A stretch of 64,000 nt of DNA from Shigella phage KPS64. Made by a program: the position numbers and the translations under genes. Location: the sequence record MK562502, one strand, 5' to 3'. Below the pieces are notes generated by a model that saw nothing but the letters and a program-made list of their open reading frames with translations, did no database searches and was not told the origin of the DNA. Positions 10,468 to 43,331 of this stretch are shown here, one piece after another; position 1 is the first letter of the stretch, and each line of letters begins with the position of its first letter.

Positions 10468-12846
10468 TTATGCAGTTCTTACCCAAGCCATTAATTTAAT
10501 GTAAGTGTTAAGAACACTGAATGCTGCACCAGAACCAGTTGCACCAGTGTTACCACTGAATGTGTGGTTGTGAGCACCAATACCTACACCGTGACCGTGA
10601 GCACCTACCCAACTTGTTCTCCCTGTCCAAGTTCTTGATGCGTAGAAGTTGACAGGTGTACCATAAGTGAATTGTGAACCAGTATAACCCCTAGAGGCTT
10701 GTGAACCTGAGATAGCGAATGCCCCACTTGCTGTATAAAAGCTATTTGAGTCACTTCTGAAGAAACCAAAGTCACCAGAGATTTCCATGTTACCTCTGTC
10801 ATGGTCGTGAGCACCTTGAGCGTCTGTGTACTTAGTACCATAATCAAAGGTAGTGGTTGTTCCAGAGAAGCTGTGAGTGTGCGCAGGGATATGACCAACA
10901 CTTAATGCAACTGTATCAGCACCACCAAGCCCTTTCACATCGGAACCATTTGCAGAACCGATTCTAATAGTTCTGTTTGCACCCTCTGTCAAGTAAGTCC
11001 AAGTAGTGCCTGGGAAAGCTGTATTTGGGTTGACATTAGAAGCAAAGAACGTCACAATACCAACTGGATACACTTTCTTAAGGTCTGTAGAATCAGTTAC
11101 AGCGGAAGCAATACGTTGGTCTACTTCAGCCTTGGTGTAAGCACCAAGTTCAGAGGGTGTAGGTTTGTCTTGGTCTGTGTAGATTTTAGCCCAAACCTCT
11201 TCAAAACCAAATCCATCCCTTGCTGTTCTATAATAGATTCCAGTATTCTTGTAGTTAAATTTAAACTGTGCAGTCGGTGTAGATGTACCAACTCCAAGGT
11301 GCATTTGGTAAACTAAGTGAGTAGACCCACCAGTTGAATTTGTAACACTGTACAAACCTGTTTTTGCATTCCAAGCAATACCTGTTGCATCACCGACTTC
11401 GGTTCCAGTTCCAGATACACCAGACAACATATATCTTGAGTTTGCAGCAGACTGTGTGTAGTATCTTGAGTCAAAGTTTGACCAATCTGTAGGCTGAACC
11501 TGACCAGTTACTGATACGCTTCTGTTGAACATGAAAGTGTCAGCAATTTCTAACTGTACACCACCACTTGAATAGTTGTACAGGAACAGAGAATTTGGCC
11601 TACTGCCTTCACCGTTACCAATATACCAACGTCTGTTGCCGTCTGCATTAGCGCCAACAATATACAGTGATGAATTAGCTGTCCCACTTTGCAATGTGAA
11701 AGCAGCATCTGTAGTAACAATAGTTTGTGGGTTAGTAAAAACGTTTGCAGCATTAGTTCTTGCAAGCACGTTCGTTAAAGAGCTTGGAACATATCTTGTA
11801 TCAAAGTTTGCGAAGTCACTTGGTTTTACCTGACCAGATACATTAATAGCTTTGTTAAATGAAAACTCTGTAGCAATTTTCAAGTTAACATTTGTCATCT
11901 GGTTTGCTAAAACAATCTCAGACTGCGTACCATCTGGTTGACCCACATACCAAGCACCTGTCCCAGCACTGTTGTAACCACGCATAAATAATGCAGCATT
12001 CTCTGAAGCCGCTCTTAAGTTAAGTGCATTACTATCTGCAATAACATAAGTCTTCCCGTTGAAGTTGTTAACCCCAACAAAGTTATTACTTGCATTAAGT
12101 CTTGCAAATCTCTGGTCAGCAGCAGTCTGTGTAAAGAATCTTGCATCAAGGTTATTCCAGTTATTAGGCTGAACCTGACCATTGATTTCAAAGTTCTTAT
12201 CAACACTAACAGAGTTTGTACCAAGAGTCAACGTAGCACCTTTGCTGTTAACTAATGTAACATCAGTACCAGAAGTCAAGTTACCAACTGTGAATCTCAA
12301 AGCATTATTTGAGTCTCTTGCTTCAATATATGCTCCACCATCTGGTAAGATACTTTTAAGTGTTAAACCAACACCGTTGATATTAATGATTTGTCTTGCC
12401 AAGAAAGTATTTTCAGTTTCCTTCATAGCATATCTTGCATCATTTTCAGTGTTAGTTCTCATACCTAATTCATTAGGAGATGGTTTATTAAGTGTGTGAT
12501 AAACTGTTGCAGACCTTGTGGCATCATTTACAGTTAATCTTAAAGCACTTGCATTAATTCTAAAGGTCTTGGCAGTGTCACCGAGAATAACTTCAGAAGA
12601 ACCTGTTGGGTCTAATAAGTCTTTTCCACCGTATCTTAATTTAACGATGCCAAGATTCCCTGTCATATCCCCACCAGTTAGTTGTAAGAATCTTTCTAGT
12701 TTGAAAGAGGCAAGGAAATTTGCATAGGTCATTTTACGGTCTTCATCACCTAGCATATCAGACCTTTTGATAATTCTTAGGTGAAGTAAATCTTCTGAGC
12801 GAACTGTATCAATACTGTTTAGCTCACTTAGCTTATATTCAGCCAT
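10468..12846 (-). CDS. tail fiber protein (792 aa) with C-terminal HxH repeats
   Basis: Repetitive N/T/S-rich fiber-like sequence; C-terminal HTHSFSG, GAHDHD, GAHGHGVGIGAHNHTFSG motifs as in metal-binding fiber tips. Confidence 0.65.
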   Translation of the reverse strand: MAEYKLSELNSIDTVRSEDLLHLRIIKRSDMLGDEDRKMTYANFLASFKLERFLQLTGGDMTGNLGIVKLRYGGKDLLDPTGSSEVILGDTAKTFRINASALRLTVNDATRSATVYHTLNKPSPNELGMRTNTENDARYAMKETENTFLARQIININGVGLTLKSILPDGGAYIEARDSNNALRFTVGNLTSGTDVTLVNSKGATLTLGTNSVSVDKNFEINGQVQPNNWNNLDARFFTQTAADQRFARLNASNNFVGVNNFNGKTYVIADSNALNLRAASENAALFMRGYNSAGTGAWYVGQPDGTQSEIVLANQMTNVNLKIATEFSFNKAINVSGQVKPSDFANFDTRYVPSSLTNVLARTNAANVFTNPQTIVTTDAAFTLQSGTANSSLYIVGANADGNRRWYIGNGEGSRPNSLFLYNYSSGGVQLEIADTFMFNRSVSVTGQVQPTDWSNFDSRYYTQSAANSRYMLSGVSGTGTEVGDATGIAWNAKTGLYSVTNSTGGSTHLVYQMHLGVGTSTPTAQFKFNYKNTGIYYRTARDGFGFEEVWAKIYTDQDKPTPSELGAYTKAEVDQRIASAVTDSTDLKKVYPVGIVTFFASNVNPNTAFPGTTWTYLTEGANRTIRIGSANGSDVKGLGGADTVALSVGHIPAHTHSFSGTTTTFDYGTKYTDAQGAHDHDRGNMEISGDFGFFRSDSNSFYTASGAFAISGSQASRGYTGSQFTYGTPVNFYASRTWTGRTSWVGAHGHGVGIGAHNHTFSGNTGATGSGAAFSVLNTYIKLMAWVRTA

Positions 12847-33808: not shown

Positions 33809-33884
33809 TTGGAGTATCGGAAGGGACTCGAACCCTCATAAGCCTGTTTTGCAGACAGGAACATAACCATTTCTGACACCGACA
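33809..33884 (-). tRNA. tRNA-Cys (anticodon GCA)
   Basis: T-arm aaggg-ACTCGAA-ccctc, 7-bp acceptor, anticodon loop CTGCAAA, encoded CCA. Confidence 0.7.
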
Positions 33885-33890
33885 CATAAT

Positions 33891-33983
33891 TTGGAGGAAG
33901 ATACCAGACTTGAACTGGTACGCCGATTTCTCGGTTACTGGCAGTTTAGCAAACTGCTCCCTTACCTTTTAGGGTTAATCTTC
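33891..33983 (-). tRNA. tRNA-Ser (anticodon GCT), long variable arm
   Basis: Perfect acceptor ggaagat/atcttcc, T-arm accag/ctggt, anticodon loop TTGCTAA. Confidence 0.7.
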
Positions 33984-33985
33984 CA

Positions 33986-34783
33986 TTATTTGTTCAGAGC
34001 TTCTTTCATCTCTGGAGTTGCGATAGTATCAATCACACCAGTTTTACATGAATCATCAAACCAGCTTGGTAGAACATTCGCAAGGAAACCATTAATATTT
34101 GTTTTCAGGTATTCTGCAATCAGTGCTGCTTCATCTGCAATCATCTGAGTTACTTCATTAGCATATGCAGTAATCTTTGCAATACCATCATTAATCGCTG
34201 TAACGGCCTGTGTAGCGAGTTCAGAGATTGTATCTAGTCCTTGGTCGATTGCATCTTGCAAATCGCTTAGAACGCTATTTACAGCGTCTATGGAGGTATT
34301 AATCAAATCCATCGCTTTGTTACCGTACTCGGTAGCTACGCCCATGATACCACTAAACGGTGTACATCCAACCTGTTCACCTGCTGCTCCCATAACGTTA
34401 GAGTAACCTTTAGCTACTTGCATACGTTGTGAAAACTCATCTACAGACTTTTGTCCATACTCAGTAAGTGTACTTGTCGTTGAAGTTGTACTTCCAAGGC
34501 TTGTTGTGAAGCTTCCTAATAAGGCTGTTGTCAGTCCAGCAGCAACTAAAATCTGTTGTGTAGCTGGGTCTGTTACAGAACTAATCGAGTTAACTAATGA
34601 TTGAGAGGCAGCTACAGTACCACCAAGAACTGCTGCACCAGTAATAAGAGGGTTTGAGAAACCATTACCAGTTTTAAGGAGATTAAAAATCTCTTTACTT
34701 TGTTCTGTCATCTCTTTCATTATGCACCTATAAAGTTGGTAGCCCATCGGGATTTGAACCCTGTTCTCATGTTTTTCAGACAC
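33986..34783 (-). CDS. hypothetical A/T/S-rich protein (265 aa) embedded in the tRNA array
   Basis: ORF flanked on both sides by tRNA genes. Confidence 0.45.
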   Translation of the reverse strand: MSEKHENRVQIPMGYQLYRCIMKEMTEQSKEIFNLLKTGNGFSNPLITGAAVLGGTVAASQSLVNSISSVTDPATQQILVAAGLTTALLGSFTTSLGSTTSTTSTLTEYGQKSVDEFSQRMQVAKGYSNVMGAAGEQVGCTPFSGIMGVATEYGNKAMDLINTSIDAVNSVLSDLQDAIDQGLDTISELATQAVTAINDGIAKITAYANEVTQMIADEAALIAEYLKTNINGFLANVLPSWFDDSCKTGVIDTIATPEMKEALNK

Positions 34784-34813
34784 GCGCTTTAACCATATAA
34801 GCTAATTGAGCTA
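34737..34813 (-). tRNA. tRNA-like gene, probable tRNA-Phe (anticodon GAA), weak T-stem
   Basis: Anticodon arm cgtgt-CTGAAAA-acatg and CCA end are clean, but the T-stem has only 3 GC pairs and the D-arm is irregular. Confidence 0.4.
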
Positions 34814-34819
34814 TTAAAT

Positions 34820-34895
34820 TGGGGTGACCTACGGGAATCGAACCCGTATAGACCATGTTCACAGCATGGGTCATTATCCATTTATGATAAGGCCA
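34820..34895 (-). tRNA. tRNA-His (anticodon GTG)
   Basis: Acceptor, D-stem tcat/atga, anticodon stem ccatg/catgg, loop CTGTGAA, T-arm acggg/cccgt. Confidence 0.7.
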
Positions 34896-34927
34896 CATTT
34901 AAGGACTCTCGTAAGAACCCTTAGAAG

Positions 34928-35003
34928 TGGCAGCAGTATAAGGATTTGAACCTTAATCTTTCAGCTTCAGAGGCTGGAGCATTGCCAGTTATGCTATACT
35001 GCT
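34928..35003 (-). tRNA. tRNA-Gln (anticodon CTG)
   Basis: Perfect acceptor, D-stem gcat/atgc, loop CTCTGAA. Confidence 0.6.
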
Positions 35004-35009
35004 AATATT

Positions 35010-35088
35010 TGGTACTCCATATCGGATTCGAACCGATACATAACACAGATTTTAAATCTGGCCTCTCTGCCAATTGGAGTAATGGAGC
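35010..35088 (-). tRNA. tRNA, anticodon reads TAA (Leu?) but short variable arm
   Basis: Clean T-arm atcgg-ATTCGAA-ccgat and acceptor; anticodon register uncertain. Confidence 0.45.
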
Positions 35089-35090
35089 AT

Positions 35091-35166
35091 TGGCGGGGGA
35101 TGATGGAGTTGAACCATCTTCTTCGATTTCAAAGACCGAGGTTTTAACCGTGTAAACTAATCCCCT
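35091..35166 (-). tRNA. tRNA-Gln (anticodon TTG)
   Basis: T-arm gatgg/ccatc, D-stem gttt/aaac, loop CTTTGAA. Confidence 0.6.
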
Positions 35167-35392
35167 AACGAACTCTTGAAAGAATATATGCGTTATTACA
35201 TGTATCCTTGTTTTCTGGTAACATTGTTTCAAAGATAACTTGCTTTAGTTCTAATCCAGCAAAATTGTAGACAACTTTTCTGACTTCTAGAGGGTCAGCT
35301 TTCCAACCAACTCTGATAAAGAAAGTATCTCCAAATCTCCCTGTTTCAAGTTTGTCATCTTCTGGGTGTTTTTCAACTATAAGTCTAAACAT
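35165..35392 (-). CDS. hypothetical small protein (75 aa) within tRNA array
   Basis: ORF between tRNA genes. Confidence 0.35.
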   Translation of the reverse strand: MFRLIVEKHPEDDKLETGRFGDTFFIRVGWKADPLEVRKVVYNFAGLELKQVIFETMLPENKDTCNNAYILSRVR

Positions 35393-35410
35393 AACTCACC
35401 CCTTTAAATT

Positions 35411-35487
35411 TGGTGCAGAATAGAGGATTCGAACCCCTAACTAACAACTTCGTAGGTTGCTGCTCTGTCCATTTGAACTAATTCTGC
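35411..35487 (-). tRNA. tRNA-Arg (anticodon ACG)
   Basis: Perfect acceptor gcagaat/attctgc, loop CTACGAA. Confidence 0.65.
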
Positions 35488-35649
35488 AATATCCTTTTGA
35501 GATTCCTGTCTAGCTCTCTTCTTATCTCTTCTGAGAAAGCGTTTACGATGGTCTGTACGCCATTTGTAATAATCTTCTTCACCATCATGTGCTGCACAGC
35601 AGCCACAACTTGCAATTTCAACTTTACCATGTCTACCATAAGGCTTCAT
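35437..35649 (-). CDS. hypothetical basic Cys-rich small protein (70 aa)
   Basis: ORF whose 3' end overlaps tRNA-Arg; real start/stop uncertain. Confidence 0.25.
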   Translation of the reverse strand: MKPYGRHGKVEIASCGCCAAHDGEEDYYKWRTDHRKRFLRRDKKRARQESQKDIAELVQMDRAATYEVVS

Positions 35650-35665
35650 AGGAATCTCCTAAAAT

Positions 35666-35743
35666 TGGTGTTCCAAGACGGATTCGAACCGTCACTAATA
35701 CAAGGTTTGAGCTTGCATCCTCTGCCAATTGGGATACTGGAAC
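35666..35743 (-). tRNA. tRNA, anticodon reads CAA (Leu?) but short variable arm
   Basis: T-arm gacgg/ccgtc and acceptor clean; D-arm paralogous to the tRNA at 35010. Confidence 0.45.
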
Positions 35744-35744
35744 T

Positions 35745-35819
35745 TGGTACTCGCTGAAGGACTTGAACCTTCTTCACCAACTTGTAAGGATGGGGCTTTA
35801 CCATATAAACTAAGCGAGC
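35745..35819 (-). tRNA. tRNA-Val (anticodon TAC)
   Basis: T-arm gaagg/ccttc, loop CTTACAA. Confidence 0.6.
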
Positions 35820-35914
35820 TTTGAAGAGGTCTGAAGCTGTGCCGCTAACTCAACTCCGTGGAATTTGTTACGGTCTTCAGTTGACTCAAGCGGTCTTTCA
35901 CTTGACCTCAAAAT

Positions 35915-35991
35915 TGGTGCTGCTCACAGGACTCGAACCTGCATCTCCATCCTTACAAGGGATGTGCAATAGCCAATTATACGAAAGCAGC
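35915..35991 (-). tRNA. tRNA-Thr (anticodon TGT)
   Basis: Anticodon stem catcc/ggatg, loop CTTGTAA. Confidence 0.6.
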
Positions 35992-35997
35992 ATTATT

Positions 35998-36072
35998 TGG
36001 AGCATCCAGAGGGAATCGAACCCTCAACCTCAGTTTGGAAGACTGTAATTTTCCCATTTAAACTATGGATGC
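35998..36072 (-). tRNA. tRNA-Gly (anticodon TCC)
   Basis: Perfect acceptor gcatcca/tggatgc, loop CTTCCAA. Confidence 0.65.
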
Positions 36073-36078
36073 ACTAAT

Positions 36079-36154
36079 TGGTGGAGAAGCAGGGAATTGA
36101 ACCCTGTACTTAAGTTTGCAAAACTTACGTTTTAACCATGTAAACTACATCCCC
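36079..36154 (-). tRNA. tRNA-Ala (anticodon TGC)
   Basis: D-stem gttt/aaac, anticodon stem taagt/actta, loop TTTGCAA. Confidence 0.65.
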
Positions 36155-36160
36155 ATTGTT

Positions 36161-36236
36161 TGGTACAGGTGGAGGGAATTGAACCCATCGTCTTACTGAT
36201 TAAGAGTCAGCCGCATAACCATTTTGCTACACCTGC
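36161..36236 (-). tRNA. tRNA-Lys (anticodon CTT), weak T-stem
   Basis: Loop CTCTTAA; T-arm gggTTCAATTccc with 3 GC pairs, paralogous to the tRNA at 37640. Confidence 0.5.
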
Positions 36237-36243
36237 ATTAATT

Positions 36244-36321
36244 TGGTAGGAGACAAGGGATTCGAACCCTCAAACACCAACTTCTAAGGATGGTAGGTTT
36301 ACCAATTACCGTCAATCTCCC
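36244..36321 (-). tRNA. tRNA, anticodon reads TAG (Leu?) but short variable arm
   Basis: T-arm and CCA end clear; anticodon register uncertain. Confidence 0.4.
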
Positions 36322-36576
36322 ATTAAATCTTTGTAGAGAACTGCTAAGACGCCAAAGCAACAATGGTATCAAATGCCTTAACAATTCTCTAAAAAGACCT
36401 ATTGGCCTCTGCATAGTCTTGCTTAATCCGGTGACTAGAACCTTTGGAGAGCTTGATACTATCTCTTCTCCGTGACACCTACTAGGTGCTTTACCAGTGC
36501 CGTGTACGCCAATACACGAAGAGGAAACCTGAAACACTTGCTCGAACAAATAGTCTCAGCTTTAAATCTTATTAGG

Positions 36577-36664
36577 CGGTAGATAAAGGAGTCGAACCCT
36601 CACCGTATCTCTACAATGGCAATAGTTTTCAAGACTATTTGGCTTCCATTAGCCGCTACCTACC
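36577..36664 (-). tRNA. tRNA-Ser (anticodon TGA), long variable arm
   Basis: Acceptor ggtaggt/atctacc, anticodon stem atagt/actat, loop CTTGAAA, about 20-nt variable arm. Confidence 0.6.
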
Positions 36665-36677
36665 CCTAATAAGACTT

Positions 36678-36760
36678 TGGCATGGGACGGAGGATTCGAA
36701 CCCCTTTGAGTAAGTTTTGGAGGCTTACGCACATGCCTTAGTGTCTTAACATCGTCCCAT
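36678..36760 (-). tRNA. tRNA, possibly Trp (anticodon CCA); about 4 nt longer than standard
   Basis: Perfect acceptor atgggac/gtcccat; loop CTCCAAA candidate; extra length unexplained. Confidence 0.45.
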
Positions 36761-36925
36761 ACTATATTTCGAAGCTTACCCTGTTATCTCAACACTGTCA
36801 AGCTTCTTCTCAGATTATTTACATGTTCTGGAAAACATGAGATACAGACCACCTCCTTATGAGATTGACTCTTTCAAGTCAATGCGGAGACCCATAAAGG
36901 TCGTCATAGTAATCTGCTAACTAAT

Positions 36926-37045
36926 TGGCAGTCAAGGTAGGAGTCGAACCTACTTACTCTTGAGGGAGCTACCCTCGGCAACTTTCCGACTTTCGTTTAT
37001 CTCTTAACGCGTATCTAAGATAACTTACTCGTGTTGTCTTGACCA
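36926..37045 (-). ncRNA. 120-nt tRNA-like RNA (117 nt without CCA): terminal stem plus canonical T-arm, extra internal hairpins
   Basis: CCA end, T-arm gtagg-AGTCGAA-cctac and 7-bp terminal stem agtcaag/cttgacc are present, but about 40 nt too long for a tRNA. Confidence 0.4.
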
Positions 37046-37052
37046 TTAAAAT

Positions 37053-37128
37053 TGGCACTCCGTATAGGACTCGAACCTATATATGAACTGTTTAGAAGAC
37101 AGTTGCCTATCCTTTAGACTAACGGAGC
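37053..37128 (-). tRNA. tRNA-Arg (anticodon TCT)
   Basis: Anticodon stem actgt/acagt, loop CTTCTAA. Confidence 0.65.
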
Positions 37129-37404
37129 ATTAATATTTTAAAGAGCACTCATTGCATTTAAGCCAAGCCCCTTAAGGGATGCTCTTTAGAATATTGCCCA
37201 CTTTATTAATCATACCGTGGGCTAGTACGCCAAATTCTTTAACAGGGGGTTGGAAGACCCTGCTGGTGTTTAGCCTATTAAGCTACTGCCAGAAAAACAT
37301 TATCGTTTGCATTTATTTTTAAGTTTTTAAAATAGACGCTACGCTAACGAAAACTAAGGTTATCTTAAAGTGGTCACATCTGAATGTCAACAACTTTATG
37401 AAAT

Positions 37405-37479
37405 TGGTTGTAGGTGAGGGTATCGAACCCTCTTCTAACGGTTATCAGCCGTTTGCATTACCATTTATGCTAACCCACA
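37405..37479 (-). tRNA. tRNA-Ile (anticodon GAT)
   Basis: D-stem gcat/atgc, anticodon stem aacgg/ccgtt, loop CTGATAA. Confidence 0.7.
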
Positions 37480-37481
37480 AT

Positions 37482-37558
37482 TGGAGGTTCAGATGGGAAT
37501 CGAACCCACATTCATAGGGCTTATGAAACCCTTGCATTACCTTATCTGCGACTGAACC
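37482..37558 (-). tRNA. tRNA-Met (anticodon CAT)
   Basis: Perfect acceptor ggttcag/ctgaacc, loop TTCATAA. Confidence 0.6.
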
Positions 37559-37639
37559 ATTATAAGTTGCCCCTTTGTAGAGAACTGATTGAGTGGGTGT
37601 TTCCAGCCGCGCATGTGTTCTTCAGTTAAGGGGCGAATT

Positions 37640-37715
37640 TGGTAGAAGTGGAGGGATTCGAACCCGTCGCCTGTCAGATTAAAAGTCTGCCGCATCACCA
37701 TTCTGCTACACTTCC
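37640..37715 (-). tRNA. tRNA-Lys (anticodon TTT), weak T-stem
   Basis: Loop CTTTTAA; T-arm gggTTCGAATccc. Confidence 0.5.
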
Positions 37716-37909
37716 ATTAAATCATCTTTGCAGTAACCTACGCAAACCTTGCTAAAGGGTTTGTAGAGTCATCTCTTATAAGCTAATCTAGAATCATGCT
37801 CAAGAGACTCTTCGGCACTCATGGGACGACTGGTTAGCTCCATAAGTCACTGCAAAGAGGATTACCAGACCGTATTTATCTTAAGTGCTCCCATTACACC
37901 AACACGCCG

Positions 37910-37990
37910 TAACGTGTGAAGGAATCGAACCTTCGCCTTTTCTTTACCAGAGAAATAGATTGTTTATTGTTTGCTGTAAACGGTCTTCTG
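37910..37990 (-). pseudogene. tRNA-like remnant: T-arm and anticodon-arm (loop CTGGTAA, anticodon GGT) without a pairing acceptor stem
   Basis: T-arm gaagg-AATCGAA-ccttc and stem tttct/agaaa found; no 5' acceptor partner. Confidence 0.3.
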
Positions 37991-38139
37991 TAAAATTGTT
38001 GGAACCAGACCAAGTTTTAAATTTTTCAAATTAAATTGGCTTGAAATATTAAAATTGCTTGCTGTATTTGGTCTTCTGCTCCTTTAAAGAATACTCGTAA
38101 GAACTCTTTAAGGGAGGGGCTAAAAAGCCCTCTCAAATT

Positions 38140-38216
38140 TGGCGGTTACGAAGGGATTCGAACCCTCATCATCCTCCGTGACAGGGAGGTATTTTGACCA
38201 GTTAAACTACATAACC
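38140..38216 (-). tRNA. tRNA-Asp (anticodon GTC)
   Basis: Anticodon stem cctcc/ggagg, loop CTGTCAC. Confidence 0.65.
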
Positions 38217-38222
38217 TTTATT

Positions 38223-38307
38223 TGGTGCGCCCATCTGGACTCGAACCAGAAACCTCGAAAGGGACAGTTTTACAGACTGCTGCATTGACCATCTCTGCCA
38301 TGAACGC
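38223..38307 (-). tRNA. tRNA-Tyr (anticodon GTA), long variable arm
   Basis: 85 nt; loop CTGTAAA; variable hairpin. Confidence 0.6.
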
Positions 38308-38316
38308 ATTTAAAAT

Positions 38317-38393
38317 TGGCGGTTAGTCAGGGATTCGAACCCTGTACCATTCGGTTAACAGCCGACCGCACATGCCTTATGTGCTTCCTAACC
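38317..38393 (-). tRNA. tRNA-Asn (anticodon GTT)
   Basis: T-arm caggg/ccctg, loop CTGTTAA. Confidence 0.6.
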
Positions 38394-38476
38394 ATATTAG
38401 TATTACCAGACCGTATCTTTTCATTTTTTCCTATAAAAAATTTTAAGTGTTTGCTGTAAACGGTCTTCTGTAAATT

Positions 38477-38553
38477 TGGAGGCGGGTGTAGGAGTCGAAC
38501 CTACCGATAACATGCTAATGAGACATGTGAGACACCCTTTCTCTATACCCGCA
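38477..38553 (-). tRNA. tRNA with anticodon CAT (Met, fMet or lysidine-Ile)
   Basis: D-stem gaga/tctc, anticodon stem catgt/gcatg, loop CTCATTA. Confidence 0.55.
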
Positions 38554-38640
38554 ATTCTTAATGACCAGACCAAATCTTTTTTGGATTTCTATGCGCGAAA
38601 TTGAAAAGTTTGTTTGCTGTAATTGGTCTTCTGTCAAAAC

Positions 38641-38718
38641 TGGCATTCCCGAAGGGACTTGAACCCTCAAACCACACCTTGAAAGGGTGTTGACTTTACC
38701 TAATTTGTCTACGGGAAT
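38641..38718 (-). tRNA. tRNA-Glu (anticodon TTC)
   Basis: Perfect acceptor attcccg/cgggaat, anticodon stem acacc/ggtgt, loop CTTTCAA. Confidence 0.65.
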
Positions 38719-38724
38719 ATAATT

Positions 38725-38801
38725 TGGTCTCCATTGAAGGACTTGAACCTTCGGCCTTACCGCCCCAAACGGAACGCTCTACCAAGCTGAGCTAAATGGA
38801 G
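38725..38801 (-). tRNA. tRNA-Pro (anticodon TGG)
   Basis: Perfect acceptor, D-stem gctc/gagc, loop TTTGGGG. Confidence 0.65.
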
Positions 38802-38966: not shown

Positions 38967-40382
38967 TTACCAATCGTAGCGTTCAACCATTACTGCTTTG
39001 AGCATTACGCTGATAGGGTCAAACTTCTCACCACCAAGCAAAGCTTTTAAAGTGGCTGGAGAGAAACCAGATACCATCGCTACACCGTTATCCTTTACAG
39101 ACACTTCGCAAGTACCGTTACGGTTTGCTAAGTACCAGAATACCAGTTGTGGCATCTCATATCCAGCTTTCTTGTACTTTTCTTGAATTGCTTCAAAGTT
39201 AGTACGACCATCTGCTCCATCAACCTGATTAAACTGCATATCAGAGAAGATGATAAGCTTACTAGGCATCTCTTTCTGAGTCAAGTTGTTTTTAACACCA
39301 ATCTCAAGGATTCTTGCAAAAGCAGCTTGTAGGTCAGTTGAACCATACTCTACATGACTCTTCACTTGACGTAAGCGAGTCTGCAAATCACCACTCAATG
39401 TGATGAAGTGAGGTCTGCTAGAGTAAACCATCAATTCATCTTTAAAGCAACCTGTGTTACGTTCTGAAACGTACAGGGCTAAAGATACACCAATGTCTAG
39501 CGCTGTAACAGAACCATGTCGCTCCCAAGTCATAGAGGAAGATACATCTGCCATGCACAGAATGTTTTCACCATCTTTCATCCAGTTTGGTAAAGCTTTC
39601 CACTGTTCATTTGCAACGGTTGCATTACCGTAACCAACTGACTTTGTAATGTCATAAGGGTAGACTGCACCAGCATTAATCTTTGTCTCACCTTTAGTCA
39701 GTGCTGCAACGTATGCTGCATAACGCTCACCATCTTTACGACTGAAGAGTTTTTGATAACGTGCAGCAGCCAGTGAAGGAAGCTTGCTGTAATCAATCTC
39801 TCCAAACTCGTTTGCTGAAATCTTTTGTTCAACAGTGTCGGACAGTGCTGACAGAAGAACTCGATACTGCTTCTCTGAAAGATTTGCAAACTTACAGAAA
39901 CGACGAACAAAACGCATATGTCGTGATTTTACTCGTGGTAACCACTTTGCTGCCAGAGCCGATGTTGCAGGGTCTAACAGTGCCGATTCTAAATGCTTGA
40001 AAGCATCTGTTTCATAACGTGTACCAACAAAGATTTTAAAGTCATCATAACGACCTAAATCAGAAATCTTGTCCATGATACGTAACACTTGGAACTCATC
40101 AAGAATCCCGTCAGAGATTGCTTTAGTAAGAGTATAACGGAACGCTTTACGCTCACCCATACCTTCTCGTGCATCTCGCATATGTAACAGGATTCGAACT
40201 GCTACATCAATATCTTCTCGCATTGCCTTGTAAAACAAGTTTGGAAGAACTTCTACATTTGTTCTGCTTGAACCAGCAGCTTTGTAGAAATCTACCAGTG
40301 CAGACATTGAAGAGGTGTGGTTAACAGCACCGTTTTCAGTTAAACCTGCATGTAAATGCGAGTGCTTAAATAATTCGCTCAT
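38967..40382 (-). CDS. vWA-domain protein with MIDAS motif; possibly TROVE/Ro60-like (471 aa)
   Basis: CMADVSSSMTW matches a DxSxS MIDAS motif at about residue 280; helical N-terminal half; adjacent to tRNA array. Confidence 0.45.
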   Translation of the reverse strand: MSELFKHSHLHAGLTENGAVNHTSSMSALVDFYKAAGSSRTNVEVLPNLFYKAMREDIDVAVRILLHMRDAREGMGERKAFRYTLTKAISDGILDEFQVLRIMDKISDLGRYDDFKIFVGTRYETDAFKHLESALLDPATSALAAKWLPRVKSRHMRFVRRFCKFANLSEKQYRVLLSALSDTVEQKISANEFGEIDYSKLPSLAAARYQKLFSRKDGERYAAYVAALTKGETKINAGAVYPYDITKSVGYGNATVANEQWKALPNWMKDGENILCMADVSSSMTWERHGSVTALDIGVSLALYVSERNTGCFKDELMVYSSRPHFITLSGDLQTRLRQVKSHVEYGSTDLQAAFARILEIGVKNNLTQKEMPSKLIIFSDMQFNQVDGADGRTNFEAIQEKYKKAGYEMPQLVFWYLANRNGTCEVSVKDNGVAMVSGFSPATLKALLGGEKFDPISVMLKAVMVERYDW

Positions 40383-40458
40383 ATTAATTCTCTCTCGTTA
40401 GAATGTTTTGGTGAGACAGACTCTAACGTTTGATTTAGAACCTGTCAACACCTTTTTA

Positions 40459-40830
40459 TTATTTTTTCAGAGTTGCTACAGCAGAGAACGTTGGTTTGTT
40501 CTCCTGTGCTCCCTGTCCTCCATTTTCAGAAGGTTTTTTACTATCTGCTGCAATTGCTTTCATCTCACCTGCTGAGTGAGTCATGATGGTTTTACCAGCT
40601 TCCATCATTGACTTCAGGTTTACGTTATCAACCGTCAAACCAAACTCTGCAAGTTTTACAGGGTCTCTGGTAACAACTGCCTCAAACAGCTTTGCAGCAT
40701 ACTCTGCTGAGTTATCAATAGTCAACTGTGCCTTGACCAGTGAACTCTTGTTACGTGAGCCTTTAGGTCTACCTGATGGGTTACCAGATTGACCTTTCTT
40801 GAATTGGCCTTTGTTTGTTCGTTTCGTCAT
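40459..40830 (-). CDS. hypothetical protein with KKGQSGNPSGRPKGS motif (123 aa)
   Basis: Basic GNPSGRPKG motif common in small phage DNA-binding proteins (recalled). Confidence 0.4.
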   Translation of the reverse strand: MTKRTNKGQFKKGQSGNPSGRPKGSRNKSSLVKAQLTIDNSAEYAAKLFEAVVTRDPVKLAEFGLTVDNVNLKSMMEAGKTIMTHSAGEMKAIAADSKKPSENGGQGAQENKPTFSAVATLKK

Positions 40831-42081: not shown

Positions 42082-42450
42082 ATGAAGGCAAAGAGTGGAA
42101 AAGACTTTTATTGCTTCCTACAATCTTATGTCCAAAGTGTTCAAGAAGGTGACAGGTATAATCTTGATGATGTACTTCCGACACCCTTAACATGGCGTGA
42201 TAGTAAATGGCCTGAAAAGGATATCAACCCTACCGAAACATACTTCGAATACACACCTAAAATTCCTCTACCCGATACTGAAGAACTTCTTTACCCGATG
42301 TTTCATATCGTCGGTCTTGGTACATTTTTGATGGATATTCAATATGTGATGGGTAAAGGCTATAAGATTGACGGAGTTGTTGTAGGTGACGTTTCACCGC
42401 AACACAAAGGTTATTTTAGACTAAACGCAAGATTAGAGGCTAAGAAATGA
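42082..42450 (+). CDS. hypothetical protein (122 aa), paralog of N-terminal domain of next gene
   Basis: Shares KxYxDFxxFVxxxVxxGKRYD ... FxMDLQY motifs with 42447..43331. Confidence 0.4.
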   Translation: MKAKSGKDFYCFLQSYVQSVQEGDRYNLDDVLPTPLTWRDSKWPEKDINPTETYFEYTPKIPLPDTEELLYPMFHIVGLGTFLMDIQYVMGKGYKIDGVVVGDVSPQHKGYFRLNARLEAKK

Positions 42451-43331
42451 TTAAAGCAAAGACATATCCAGATTTTAAAGAGTTCGTTAAAGACTTTGTA
42501 GCGAATGTTAAAGCTGGCAAAAGATACGACTTCAGAAAGTATCAAGAGGCCGTTCTGCCTCTGACATATAGCTCACCGTGGCCTGAGTCTGATATTCCAG
42601 AAGTTACTGACTTCAATTACACACCAGACTACACAGTTCCATTTAGTGAAGAACTTTTATATTCAGTTGGTGCTCAGATGAGGACTGCTGATTTCTTCAT
42701 GGACTTGCAGTATGCAATCATCAATGGAAAGGATGTTGACACAGTTTATTGTGAATGGTTGGCAAGGGTTAAACCTTTCTCCATGCTTAATGCAAAGTTG
42801 AAGGATGCAATCACACCTCCAGTTATTACACAGCAGCCAACTGACCAAACTGTTAACGAGGGTGGAACACTTACACTTTCAGTTGTTGCTACTGGTGCAA
42901 CTGGTTATCAGTGGAAGAAAGGTGCATCAAACATCTCTGGAGCAACCTCTGCAACATATACTAAGAATGGCGTAGTACCTACTGATGCTGGCGCATACAC
43001 CTGTGTAGTTTCTGGTGAAGGTGGCTCAAGTGTTAATTCCAACGCTGCCACAGTAACTGTGAATGCACTGCCTGTGATTACACAGCAACCTACTAACCAA
43101 GAGATTACAGAGGGAGATACACTCACCCTTAGCATCGTAGCCACTGGTGCAACTGGTTATCAGTGGAAGAAAGATGATGTAGATATCCCTTCAGCAACAT
43201 CTGCAACATATGAAAAGACACCGACTTCTAAAGCTGATGATGAAGGTACTTACTCTTGTGTTGTAACTGGTGTAGGTGGCTCAATCACATCCCAATCTGC
43301 CAAGGTGGTTATTAACGCAGTAGGAGGTTGA
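42447..43331 (+). CDS. protein with two tandem Ig-like repeats (294 aa)
   Basis: Two about 80-aa repeats PVITQQPT(D/N)Q...TLTLS(V/I)VATGATGYQWKK...TSATY...Y(T/S)CVV(S/T)G(E/V)GGS. Confidence 0.5.
   Translation: MIKAKTYPDFKEFVKDFVANVKAGKRYDFRKYQEAVLPLTYSSPWPESDIPEVTDFNYTPDYTVPFSEELLYSVGAQMRTADFFMDLQYAIINGKDVDTVYCEWLARVKPFSMLNAKLKDAITPPVITQQPTDQTVNEGGTLTLSVVATGATGYQWKKGASNISGATSATYTKNGVVPTDAGAYTCVVSGEGGSSVNSNAATVTVNALPVITQQPTNQEITEGDTLTLSIVATGATGYQWKKDDVDIPSATSATYEKTPTSKADDEGTYSCVVTGVGGSITSQSAKVVINAVGG

Follow-up and report, generated by a model that had tools for sequence, protein, structure and literature searches.

Background

Ribonucleoprotein particles of Ro60 and Y RNA are conserved from bacteria to humans; their roles are only partly understood and they have barely been studied in phages. 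We analysed here a gene possibly belonging to such a system, found in a stretch of 64,000 nucleotides of Shigella phage KPS64 (sequence record MK562502), hereafter called the window. The gene, located at 38967..40382 on the minus strand, codes for a protein of 471 amino acids and adjoins an array of tRNA genes that contains several copies of a small RNA element. An earlier reading of the same DNA made without database searches (the sequence-only reading) had proposed that it encodes a von Willebrand A (vWA) domain protein resembling Ro60.

In bacteria and in 22 phages, Ro60 proteins recognisable by their TROVE sequence are accompanied by YrlA-type Y RNAs, which the same strand encodes at most 4 kb away (PMC4201824). 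The Ro60 of a Thermus phage binds two phage-encoded Y-like RNAs as well as the host PNPase (PMC12135203). A direct precedent is gp130 of phage Bas63, described in the PhageMaP preprint as highly similar in structure to Ro60 and encoded upstream of tRNAs; deletion of g130 led to smaller plaques on a Ppl host, complementation reversed this effect, and gp130 was presented as a counter of the Ppl defence (PMC11482910). The same authors speculated that some of the annotated tRNAs may be Y RNAs (PMC11482910).

The Ro60 likeness of this ortholog is already known. What the present study adds is a gene-linked and widely conserved family of RNA elements, each combining a closing stem with the motif ACAGCAA and including a member with the design of a permuted tRNA. 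We consider it rather probable that the gene encodes a Ro60-like protein forming a ribonucleoprotein with these adjacent small RNAs, in the manner of Ro60 and Y RNA. The elements supply a sequence-defined and conserved candidate for the RNA partner, which turns this proposal into a directly testable one.

Results and discussion

A DUF2828 protein with the predicted fold of Ro60

An ATG-to-stop open reading frame (ORF) of 471 codons before the stop exactly fills 38967..40382 (minus strand). Its product matches Pfam DUF2828 (PF11443) over residues 171-269 (E 9e-27, 94.4 bits, cut-off 29), Pfam DUF7788 (PF25043) over residues 275-455 (E 6e-44, 150.4 bits, cut-off 27.1) and, over its full length, PHROG 850, “RNA-binding protein” (E 7e-178); these scores lie above curated cut-offs and place the protein in all three families. 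A search of NCBIfam with the protein gave no match. The Pfam families suggested by the sequence-only reading were recovered in part, DUF2828 and the vWA family DUF7788 being found above cut-off and TROVE giving no match at E ≤ 1. The region shows 98% DNA identity with Shigella phage Sf17 (Mooglevirus, Ounavirinae), whose orthologous product (YP_009618699.1) is called “RNA-binding protein” in RefSeq with a DUF2828 note, and 254 phage records match it at the DNA level. The Bas63 ortholog (bas63_0130 of Escherichia phage JohannRWettstein, a Felixounavirus) is 83% identical over all 471 residues and syntenic, between a DUF5681 gene and tRNA-Pro. Using tblastn, full-length homologs were retrieved in 709 of 50,697 phage records, infecting Escherichia, Salmonella, Vibrio, Aeromonas, Campylobacter, Mycobacterium, Listeria, Staphylococcus, Enterococcus, Bacillus and cyanobacteria among others, and some of the mycobacteriophage homologs are annotated as “Ro-like RNA binding protein”. 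Metagenomic homologs number in the thousands. Because of the three family matches and the 709 phage records with a homolog, 38967..40382 is not a chance ORF.

Conservation and structure were derived from an alignment of 40 homologs with identities down to 41%, which also served for the AlphaFold2 model (pLDDT 89.6, pTM 0.89). The helical domain of about 270 residues expected ahead of the metal-binding motif is almost wholly helical in this model (residues 1 to ~270, 39573..40382, minus strand; DSSP) and corresponds to the TROVE/HEAT-like part of the ring. It is followed by the predicted vWA domain (residues ~272-455, 39018..39569, minus strand; the DUF7788 region), in which strands and helices alternate. 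The DxSxS motif on which the initial proposal was built is present as D279-V-S-S-S283 in the translation (39534..39548, minus strand) and belongs to a complete metal ion-dependent adhesion site (MIDAS), the rest of which is formed by T349 and D381; D279, S281, S283, T349 and D381 are invariant in 40/40 aligned sequences. The model therefore combines the alpha/beta fold and DxSxS...T...D metal site that define the vWA superfamily with the arrangement of Ro60, a helical-repeat domain followed by a C-terminal vWA domain carrying a MIDAS. The helical half has its own invariant basic and aromatic motifs, R69-D-x-R-x-G-x-G-E-R78, G110-R-x-D-D114 and K146-W-x-P-R150.

In Foldseek searches with the model, Ro60 entries ranked first (E ~1e-8, probability 1.0), with PDB 2i91 and 9nfa among the top matches, and the structural alignment with Ro60 1yvp_A extended over 395 residues. 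On the basis of this model the protein belongs to the structural class of Ro60 but is divergent in sequence, in line with the resemblance initially suspected. The other fold matches include midasin MIDAS domains and the vWA domain of Ku80, which bind peptide ligands. Together with the invariance of the MIDAS residues and with a sole reported phenotype that is a defence counter, they would fit a protein acting mainly as a vWA/MIDAS protein-protein adaptor, its metal site binding and blocking a host target (the Ppl enzyme, for instance), with the helical half as a scaffold and no RNA involved. We regard this as improbable, since the alignments of non-Ro60 matches, made of a lone vWA domain, do not exceed 188 residues whereas that of Ro60 covers 395, and the strictly conserved Arg, Lys and Trp motifs sit in the helical half. 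The adaptor would moreover leave the gene-linked RNA elements unexplained, and no MoxR-type AAA+ partner gene is found near the gene among the window ORFs or in the Sf17 annotation.

Four copies of a stem-ACAGCAA element in the tRNA array

As noted in the sequence-only reading, the gene stands beside a tRNA array: it is directly upstream of, and on the same strand as, 26 tRNA genes (33810..38801, minus strand; ARAGORN and Rfam). Within the first 1 kb of this array, at 37862-38636 (minus strand), we identified four copies of one element, E1 to E4, consisting of a stem-bulge-stem followed by UUACAGCAAAC. In each copy, an asymmetric internal loop, with AGA in the 5' strand and G in the 3' strand, separates an outer helix from a 7-bp helix, AGACCrwu/awyGGUCU; a single-stranded UUACAGCAA(A/G)C beside the 5' arm and a variable interior come next. 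The outer helices differ in sequence yet pair (UGAC/GUCA, UUAC/GUAA and GGAGC/GUUCC). The sequence AGAAGACCNNNTACAGCAA has four exact occurrences in the window, each of them on the gene strand and within 37971-38632, and a fifth match with three mismatches elsewhere; shuffled sequences contain 0.82 matches on average and 0/100 shuffles reached five.

Three copies are of a short type. E1 (38562..38636, minus strand) fills the spacer between tRNA-Glu and tRNA-Met, with UGAC/GUCA, the AGA/G loop, AGACCAA/UUGGUCU and the single-stranded UUACAGCAAAC; E2 (38403..38473, minus strand) fills the spacer between tRNA-Met and tRNA-Asn, with UUAC/GUAA outside and the helix AGACCGU/ACGGUCU; E3 (38001..38082, minus strand) has GGAGC/GUUCC as outer helix. 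E1 and E2, which both occupy a whole tRNA-tRNA spacer, would be releasable by ordinary tRNA 5' and 3' processing. The fourth copy, E4 (37862..37993, minus strand), is of a long, tRNA-like type. It has a closing stem and UUACAGCAAAC as in E2. Its interior begins with an anticodon-like arm and a T arm (GAAGGUUCGAUUCCUUC), continues with a closed acceptor-like hairpin (ACACGU..GCGUGU) and finishes with a D-arm-like hairpin; by analogy, such an order corresponds to a circularly permuted tRNA, the layout known from bacterial YrlA. The Rfam tRNA model gives 28.8 bits over the anticodon and T arms of E4. The element is full-length in 245 of the 247 matching Ounavirinae records and almost never annotated. 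More generally, the element family explains conserved unannotated spacers in phage tRNA arrays.

A covariance model, R1, was built from 21 short elements of a discovery set selected by a motif-plus-stem filter; the variable loops were shortened to 24 nt and the sequences aligned by MAFFT, then without gaps. Full-length elements (their 3' ends) and the long type beyond the T arm did not align by MAFFT, and R1 excludes the long type. Searched across the window with filters off, R1 ranks E2, E1, E3 and the 5' part of E4 first. The first three, training members of the model, score 49.2 bits, 38 bits (E 8e-7) and 25.5 bits, and the 5' part of E4, outside the training set, 22 bits. The next match, at 12647-12697 (20.1 bits, E 0.04), lies inside an ORF of 792 aa and lacks ACAGCAA; it was dismissed as a chance match.

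Two further gaps of the array were noted. The first (36665-37052, minus strand, 388 nt), in which neither ARAGORN nor Rfam calls a tRNA, includes stretches resembling a T arm, GGUUCGACUCC and GGGGUUCGAAUCCUCC with ...CCCAUGCCA after them, and may hold a degenerate or unusual tRNA-like RNA. The second (37129-37404, minus strand, 276 nt), beside tRNA-Ile, shows below-threshold matches to permuted tmRNA (34.7 bits, 37278-37465) and alpha-tmRNA (20.8 bits), probably driven by the adjacent tRNA. In Bas63, the counterpart of E4 lies under two small coding sequences (CDS) of the opposite strand, bas63_0137 and 0138 (locus L005, 22749-23023), which are likely annotation artefacts.

The element in diverged relatives and in unrelated phages

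Contigs encoding proteins 62%, 54% and 51% identical to the window protein, as well as Klebsiella phage FBKp34 (50%), retain the ACAGCAA motif. The stems of the diverged contigs differ from each other and compensate (AAGUAUC..GAUACUGG, AAGACUA..UAGUCUGG, AAGUGUC..GACACUGG and AGGACUG..CAGUCCAG); among these contigs and FBKp34, stems include AGUAUC/GAUACU, GGACUG/CAGUCC and GAAGAU/AUCUUC. FBKp34 carries four tandem copies straight after its DUF2828 gene. In annotated phages unrelated to KPS64, two to four copies in tandem directly adjoin the DUF2828 gene and have its orientation, lying either upstream of the gene (Campylobacter F358, Listeria WIL-1, Enterococcus EF5, Bacillus Tsamsa and Aeromonas LAh_9) or downstream of it (Mycobacterium Kingsolomon and Staphylococcus SEP9). 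Most of these phages also possess one long copy, with the T arm, the closed acceptor and the D arm in this order, and the T arm of the long type shows compensatory changes in 4 of its 5 pairs across nine phages. In nearly every copy the first stem pair is located 9 nt ahead of ACAGCAA, and the 3' arm is followed by G or UGU. The co-occurrence of tRNA-like RNAs with the gene in related phages, which had been suggested as a check, is observed in most of these phages as gene-linked elements whose long type is tRNA-like.

At gathering thresholds, Rfam yields nothing but tRNAs in the loci of these phages; the element is therefore no described Rfam 15 family. A candidate RNA partner for the protein was found neither in Rfam 15 nor in the literature searched, where the combination of ACAGCAA and Ro60 returned primer and probe coincidences only.

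Several observations concern the same loci. “Long tRNAs” of 110-121 nt occur near the DUF2828 gene in Klebsiella FBKp34 (L006, 8003-8113), Aeromonas LAh_9 (L008, 3334-3450), Synechococcus B3 (L016, 7848-7957) and Cronobacter S13 (L017, 7895-8015 and 8025-8137). They match the Rfam tRNA model end to end and are not called by ARAGORN, some have an encoded CCA, and in place of the anticodon-arm region they carry a hairpin and then UUACAGCA or UUCAGCA, which looks like a third context of an ACAGCAA-type motif. In Listeria WIL-1, a match to the ROOL RNA (87 bits, E 4e-16, gathering score 99.1) is located in the tRNA region (L011, 4423-4974), about 1 kb upstream of the DUF2828 gene, and dozens of tiny CDS annotated over Rfam tRNAs (L011, 1-5900) are likely artefacts. 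So is probably the annotated gene start of LAh_9 (L008, 5866), situated 135 nt upstream of the homology and overlapping two RNA elements.

Independent test on 75 loci

Because the discovery set had been chosen with the motif-plus-stem filter, the association was evaluated on 75 further DUF2828 loci from IMG/VR (38-46% protein identity, 634 kb) unused in discovery. A filter on 6-bp stems was too permissive, shuffled loci giving 1-4.5 matches each on average, and we relied instead on a minimum stem length of 7 bp, on controls by strand and by zone, and on the covariance model. Without any stem criterion, the 800-nt flanks of the gene contain ACAGCAA on the gene strand at a density of 0.45-0.57 per kb, against 0.06-0.14 per kb elsewhere and on the other strand. 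An unbiased comparison of 7-mers in the 800-nt flanks on the gene strand gave 59 observed copies of ACAGCAA for 8.5 expected, in 34 loci, making it the top enriched 7-mer outside A-rich low-complexity words. A closing stem of at least 7 bp accompanies 32/59 of these flank copies and 6/57 of the within-gene and opposite-strand controls. R1 produced 51 matches at E ≤ 1, 50 of them on the gene strand and nearly all adjoining the gene, distributed over 37/75 loci (23/75 at E ≤ 0.01). A relaxed motif, [AT]CAGCA[ACT], reached 45/75 loci and was also present on the control strand in 28; it was not used for any claim.

The association of the gene with the RNA elements on one strand is statistically robust. 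The tRNAs share this orientation (166/166 on the gene strand, within 4 kb of the gene in 24/75 loci), but five loci with elements (L042, L056, L064, L070 and L071) have no Rfam tRNA at or above the gathering score, and the link is therefore to the gene and not to the tRNA arrays. In two of these loci the elements lie downstream of the DUF2828 gene and are followed at once by a near-threshold match to NsiR1, a small RNA of cyanobacteria (L064, 5928-5982, 38.6 bits; L056, 5924-5978, 37.7 bits; gathering score 39).

The flanks are A-rich, A-rich 7-mers head the enrichment list, individual Rfam matches fall under gathering scores and the folding z-scores are weak, so that one could ascribe the recurrence of ACAGCAA, together with the Class I RNA match described below, to compositional bias or to convergent short motifs in AT-rich intergenic DNA. 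This explanation is largely refuted and appears very improbable to us: ACAGCAA is not of low complexity and is enriched about 7-fold on one strand only, the stems vary in sequence but stay paired, their first pair keeping a fixed distance of 9 nt to ACAGCAA, the matches of a model derived from one set and applied to another are biased 50:1 towards the gene strand, and E4 is conserved in 247 genomes.

Resemblance to YrlA and the question of a partner RNA

The Rfam YrlA model matches long elements beside the gene in three phages, in loci L010 (37.9 bits, E 9.5e-5), L037 (39.2 bits, E 3.9e-5) and L085 (32.9 bits), with E-values of 4e-5 to 3e-3 and scores all below the gathering score of 69; the matches span the T arm, the closed acceptor and the D arm. 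E4 and YrlA would have the tRNA-like module in common and differ in their closing module. No YrlA or Y_RNA was found in the window at gathering score, and a YrlA match of 21.6 bits was rejected as a tRNA artefact, sitting over tRNA-Phe and tRNA-His.

A Ro60-like ring could also have as substrates the RNAs of the host, or phage tRNAs that are misfolded or damaged, and serve for instance as a platform for quality control or repair without a dedicated partner RNA; the elements would then be something else accompanying the gene, for example processing signals, regulatory leaders or trailers, or RNAs of another factor. Ro60 binds misfolded RNAs via its central hole, and 2i91 and 9nfa are among the top fold matches. 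Repair genes accompany the DUF2828 gene in Listeria WIL-1 (RtcB-type tRNA splicing ligase, RNA ligase, HD and NADAR proteins), and others are found in Aeromonas LAh_9 (RNA ligase 2), Cronobacter S13 (tRNA nucleotidyltransferase) and Bas63 (polynucleotide kinase); comparative genomics of jumbo phages likewise placed ROT/TROVE proteins alongside RNA-repair systems (PMC7824862). The detection of an element in only about one third to one half of the independent loci also suits such a ring. Against it stand the 50/51 R1 matches on the gene strand, the elements abutting the gene in phages of at least seven bacterial groups, tRNA-less loci included, the YrlA architecture of the long type, YrlA being a Ro60 ligand, and the absence of repair genes from the neighbourhood of the window gene. 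A ring without partner RNA seems to us possible but unlikely. The stem-plus-ACAGCAA small RNAs beside the gene, in the window as in unrelated phages, are probably the partners of the protein.

Proposed mechanism and points against it

In the ribonucleoprotein that we propose, the helical TROVE-like horseshoe (residues 1 to ~270) would be closed into a ring by the vWA domain with its intact MIDAS. The array would be transcribed from two promoter-like sites just past the gene: consensus scanning gave two sigma-70-like pattern matches between the gene stop and tRNA-Pro, at 38948-38920 (10/12) and 38858-38829 (11/12, with TG), both on the minus strand. Processing of the flanking tRNAs would release E1 to E4, and the stem-bulge-stem closed by the 5' and 3' ends of each element, with the single-stranded UUACAGCAAAC at its 5' arm, would be the binding module for the protein. 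Through its permuted tRNA body, E4 could link the ring to a host factor that recognises tRNA or degrades RNA, or could serve as a decoy for such a factor, and the MIDAS site of the vWA domain would be available to a protein ligand. The net outcome might be the protection of the phage from host defence, for which the effect of the Bas63 ortholog on Ppl is the sole experimental clue. Fold class, MIDAS conservation, family membership and the association of gene and RNA elements are established by the analysis; RNA binding by the protein, processing of the elements, effector and biological role are what we infer.

Several results weigh against this interpretation. On the protein side, TROVE (PF05731) is not detected at the threshold given above, phmmer against PDB returned nothing and a profile of the family reaches the TROVE chains 9l5y and 9kop only at E 1.6. 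On the RNA side, the 100% pairing of the discovery set is partly a product of the filter by which it was assembled, and the folding stability of E1 to E4 is unremarkable (z -0.7 to -2.0); because the folding energies are not significant alone, the case for the elements rests on comparative evidence. With default filters and the long type uncovered by the model, only 23-37 of the 75 loci have an R1 match, meaning either that the partnership is not universal or that the model is insensitive. E4 itself gives no match to YrlA (RF02553) at E ≤ 10, and every YrlA and Class I match stays under the Rfam gathering score. Finally, the source of the Ppl result is a preprint, and the degradation of DNA that its authors propose as the activity of Ppl makes no obvious call for an RNA-binding antagonist (PMC11482910).

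Resemblance to Dictyostelium Class I RNAs

Only one of 4227 Rfam families, RF01414 (Dictyostelium Class I RNA), aligns end to end with the short-type elements. The scores are 25.7 bits for E2 (E 0.23) and 17.5 bits for E4, and E1 to E4 all remain below the gathering score of 41.5 and outside the family. In the independent loci, RF01414 gives full-length matches of 23-31 bits in 5 of 7 loci, at the coordinates of the R1 matches, and the best phage element reaches 30.7 bits. The phage elements and the Class I RNAs have in common a size of ~50-70 nt and clustered multi-copy genes. To our knowledge, the Class I RNAs have not been connected with any Ro-like protein, and what they do has been unclear since 2004.

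In Class I RNAs, the 5' and 3' ends form a short stem, whose 5' arm is followed by a conserved single-stranded motif of 11 nt and then by a variable interior, and a CUGU tail follows the stem; these RNAs were reported as unique to dictyostelids and bind the RRM protein Rnp1A (PMC7919456). The 11-nt motif, CCUUACAGCAA in the Rfam consensus, has nine motif bases in common with the phage UUACAGCAA in a similar layout, and copies from phages of Gram-positive hosts end with CUGU or UUGU. The DUSE promoter ~60 nt upstream is a eukaryotic feature of Class I RNAs, not expected in a phage. We hold a shared ancestry or function of the phage elements and Class I RNAs to be doubtful. DUF2828 paralogs have been described as mimiviral-like (10.1101/033464). 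It is conceivable, if rather unlikely, that DUF2828 proteins represent a second divergent branch of Ro60 with ligands of its own, defined by a terminal stem and a single-stranded UUACAGCAA and in some cases by a permuted tRNA, and that the Class I RNAs are eukaryotic members of these ligands, analogues of Y RNAs with a DUF2828-type ring as partner, possibly acquired from viruses. If true, this would offer a concrete and cheap hypothesis on the protein partner and origin of the Class I RNAs.

Neighbouring genes

Upstream of the Ro60-like gene, at 40459..40830 (minus strand), is a DUF5681 gene (123 aa; Pfam PF18932, E 8e-13), its syntenic partner in Ounavirinae-like phages; the DUF5681-DUF2828 order is retained in the contigs whose Ro-like protein is 62%, 54% and 51% identical. 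The N-terminus of the 123-aa protein is rich in Lys, Arg and Gly, and it may be a functional partner of the DUF2828 protein. A sigma-70-like pattern match (TTGACA-17-TAGAGT, 10/12 in a consensus scan) precedes the Ro60-like gene at 40420..40448 (minus strand). Farther away, at 42447-43331 (plus strand), a protein of 294 aa contains two near-identical Ig-like repeats (VITQQPT.Q...GATGYQWKK) and is annotated as a tail protein in Sf17; its first 120 aa are paralogous to the preceding ORF of 122 aa.

Comparison with known Ro60 systems

Compared with the Ro60/Rsr proteins and their Y RNAs (Xenopus Ro60-Y3, Deinococcus Rsr-Yrn1, Salmonella Rsr-YrlA/YrlB), the phage protein lacks the TROVE sequence signature and is shorter (471 aa for Ro60 chains of ~500-530 aa), and the putative binding module of its RNAs, a stem with a single-stranded UUACAGCAA, differs in sequence from the closing stem of the YrlA consensus in Rfam. 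The Ro60 of Thermus phage phiLo, with its RNAs Yrl1/Yrl2 (PDB 9l5y, 9kop; PMC12135203), is recognisably of TROVE type whereas the window protein is not, and the two share 16% identity in structural alignment. The “Ro-like RNA binding protein” of mycobacteriophage Kingsolomon (gp54) belongs to the same DUF2828 family, with 34% identity over the full length, and is directly followed by three tandem elements, the middle one YrlA-like by score; it is distinct from the TROVE-type Ro60 of other mycobacteriophages, such as ET08, studied with YrlA (PMC4201824).

Owing to the published precedents of Bas63 gp130 and of the TROVE-type phage Ro60 proteins, the Ro60 interpretation of the window gene is supported but not new: it is right for the fold and the genomic logic, and had already been published for the Bas63 ortholog. 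The two studies differ in the RNAs to which they point, the Bas63 work having suspected annotated tRNA genes while the candidates of the present analysis are unannotated spacer elements. This element family, with its permuted-tRNA member, points to a variant of Ro60-Y RNA systems not described before.

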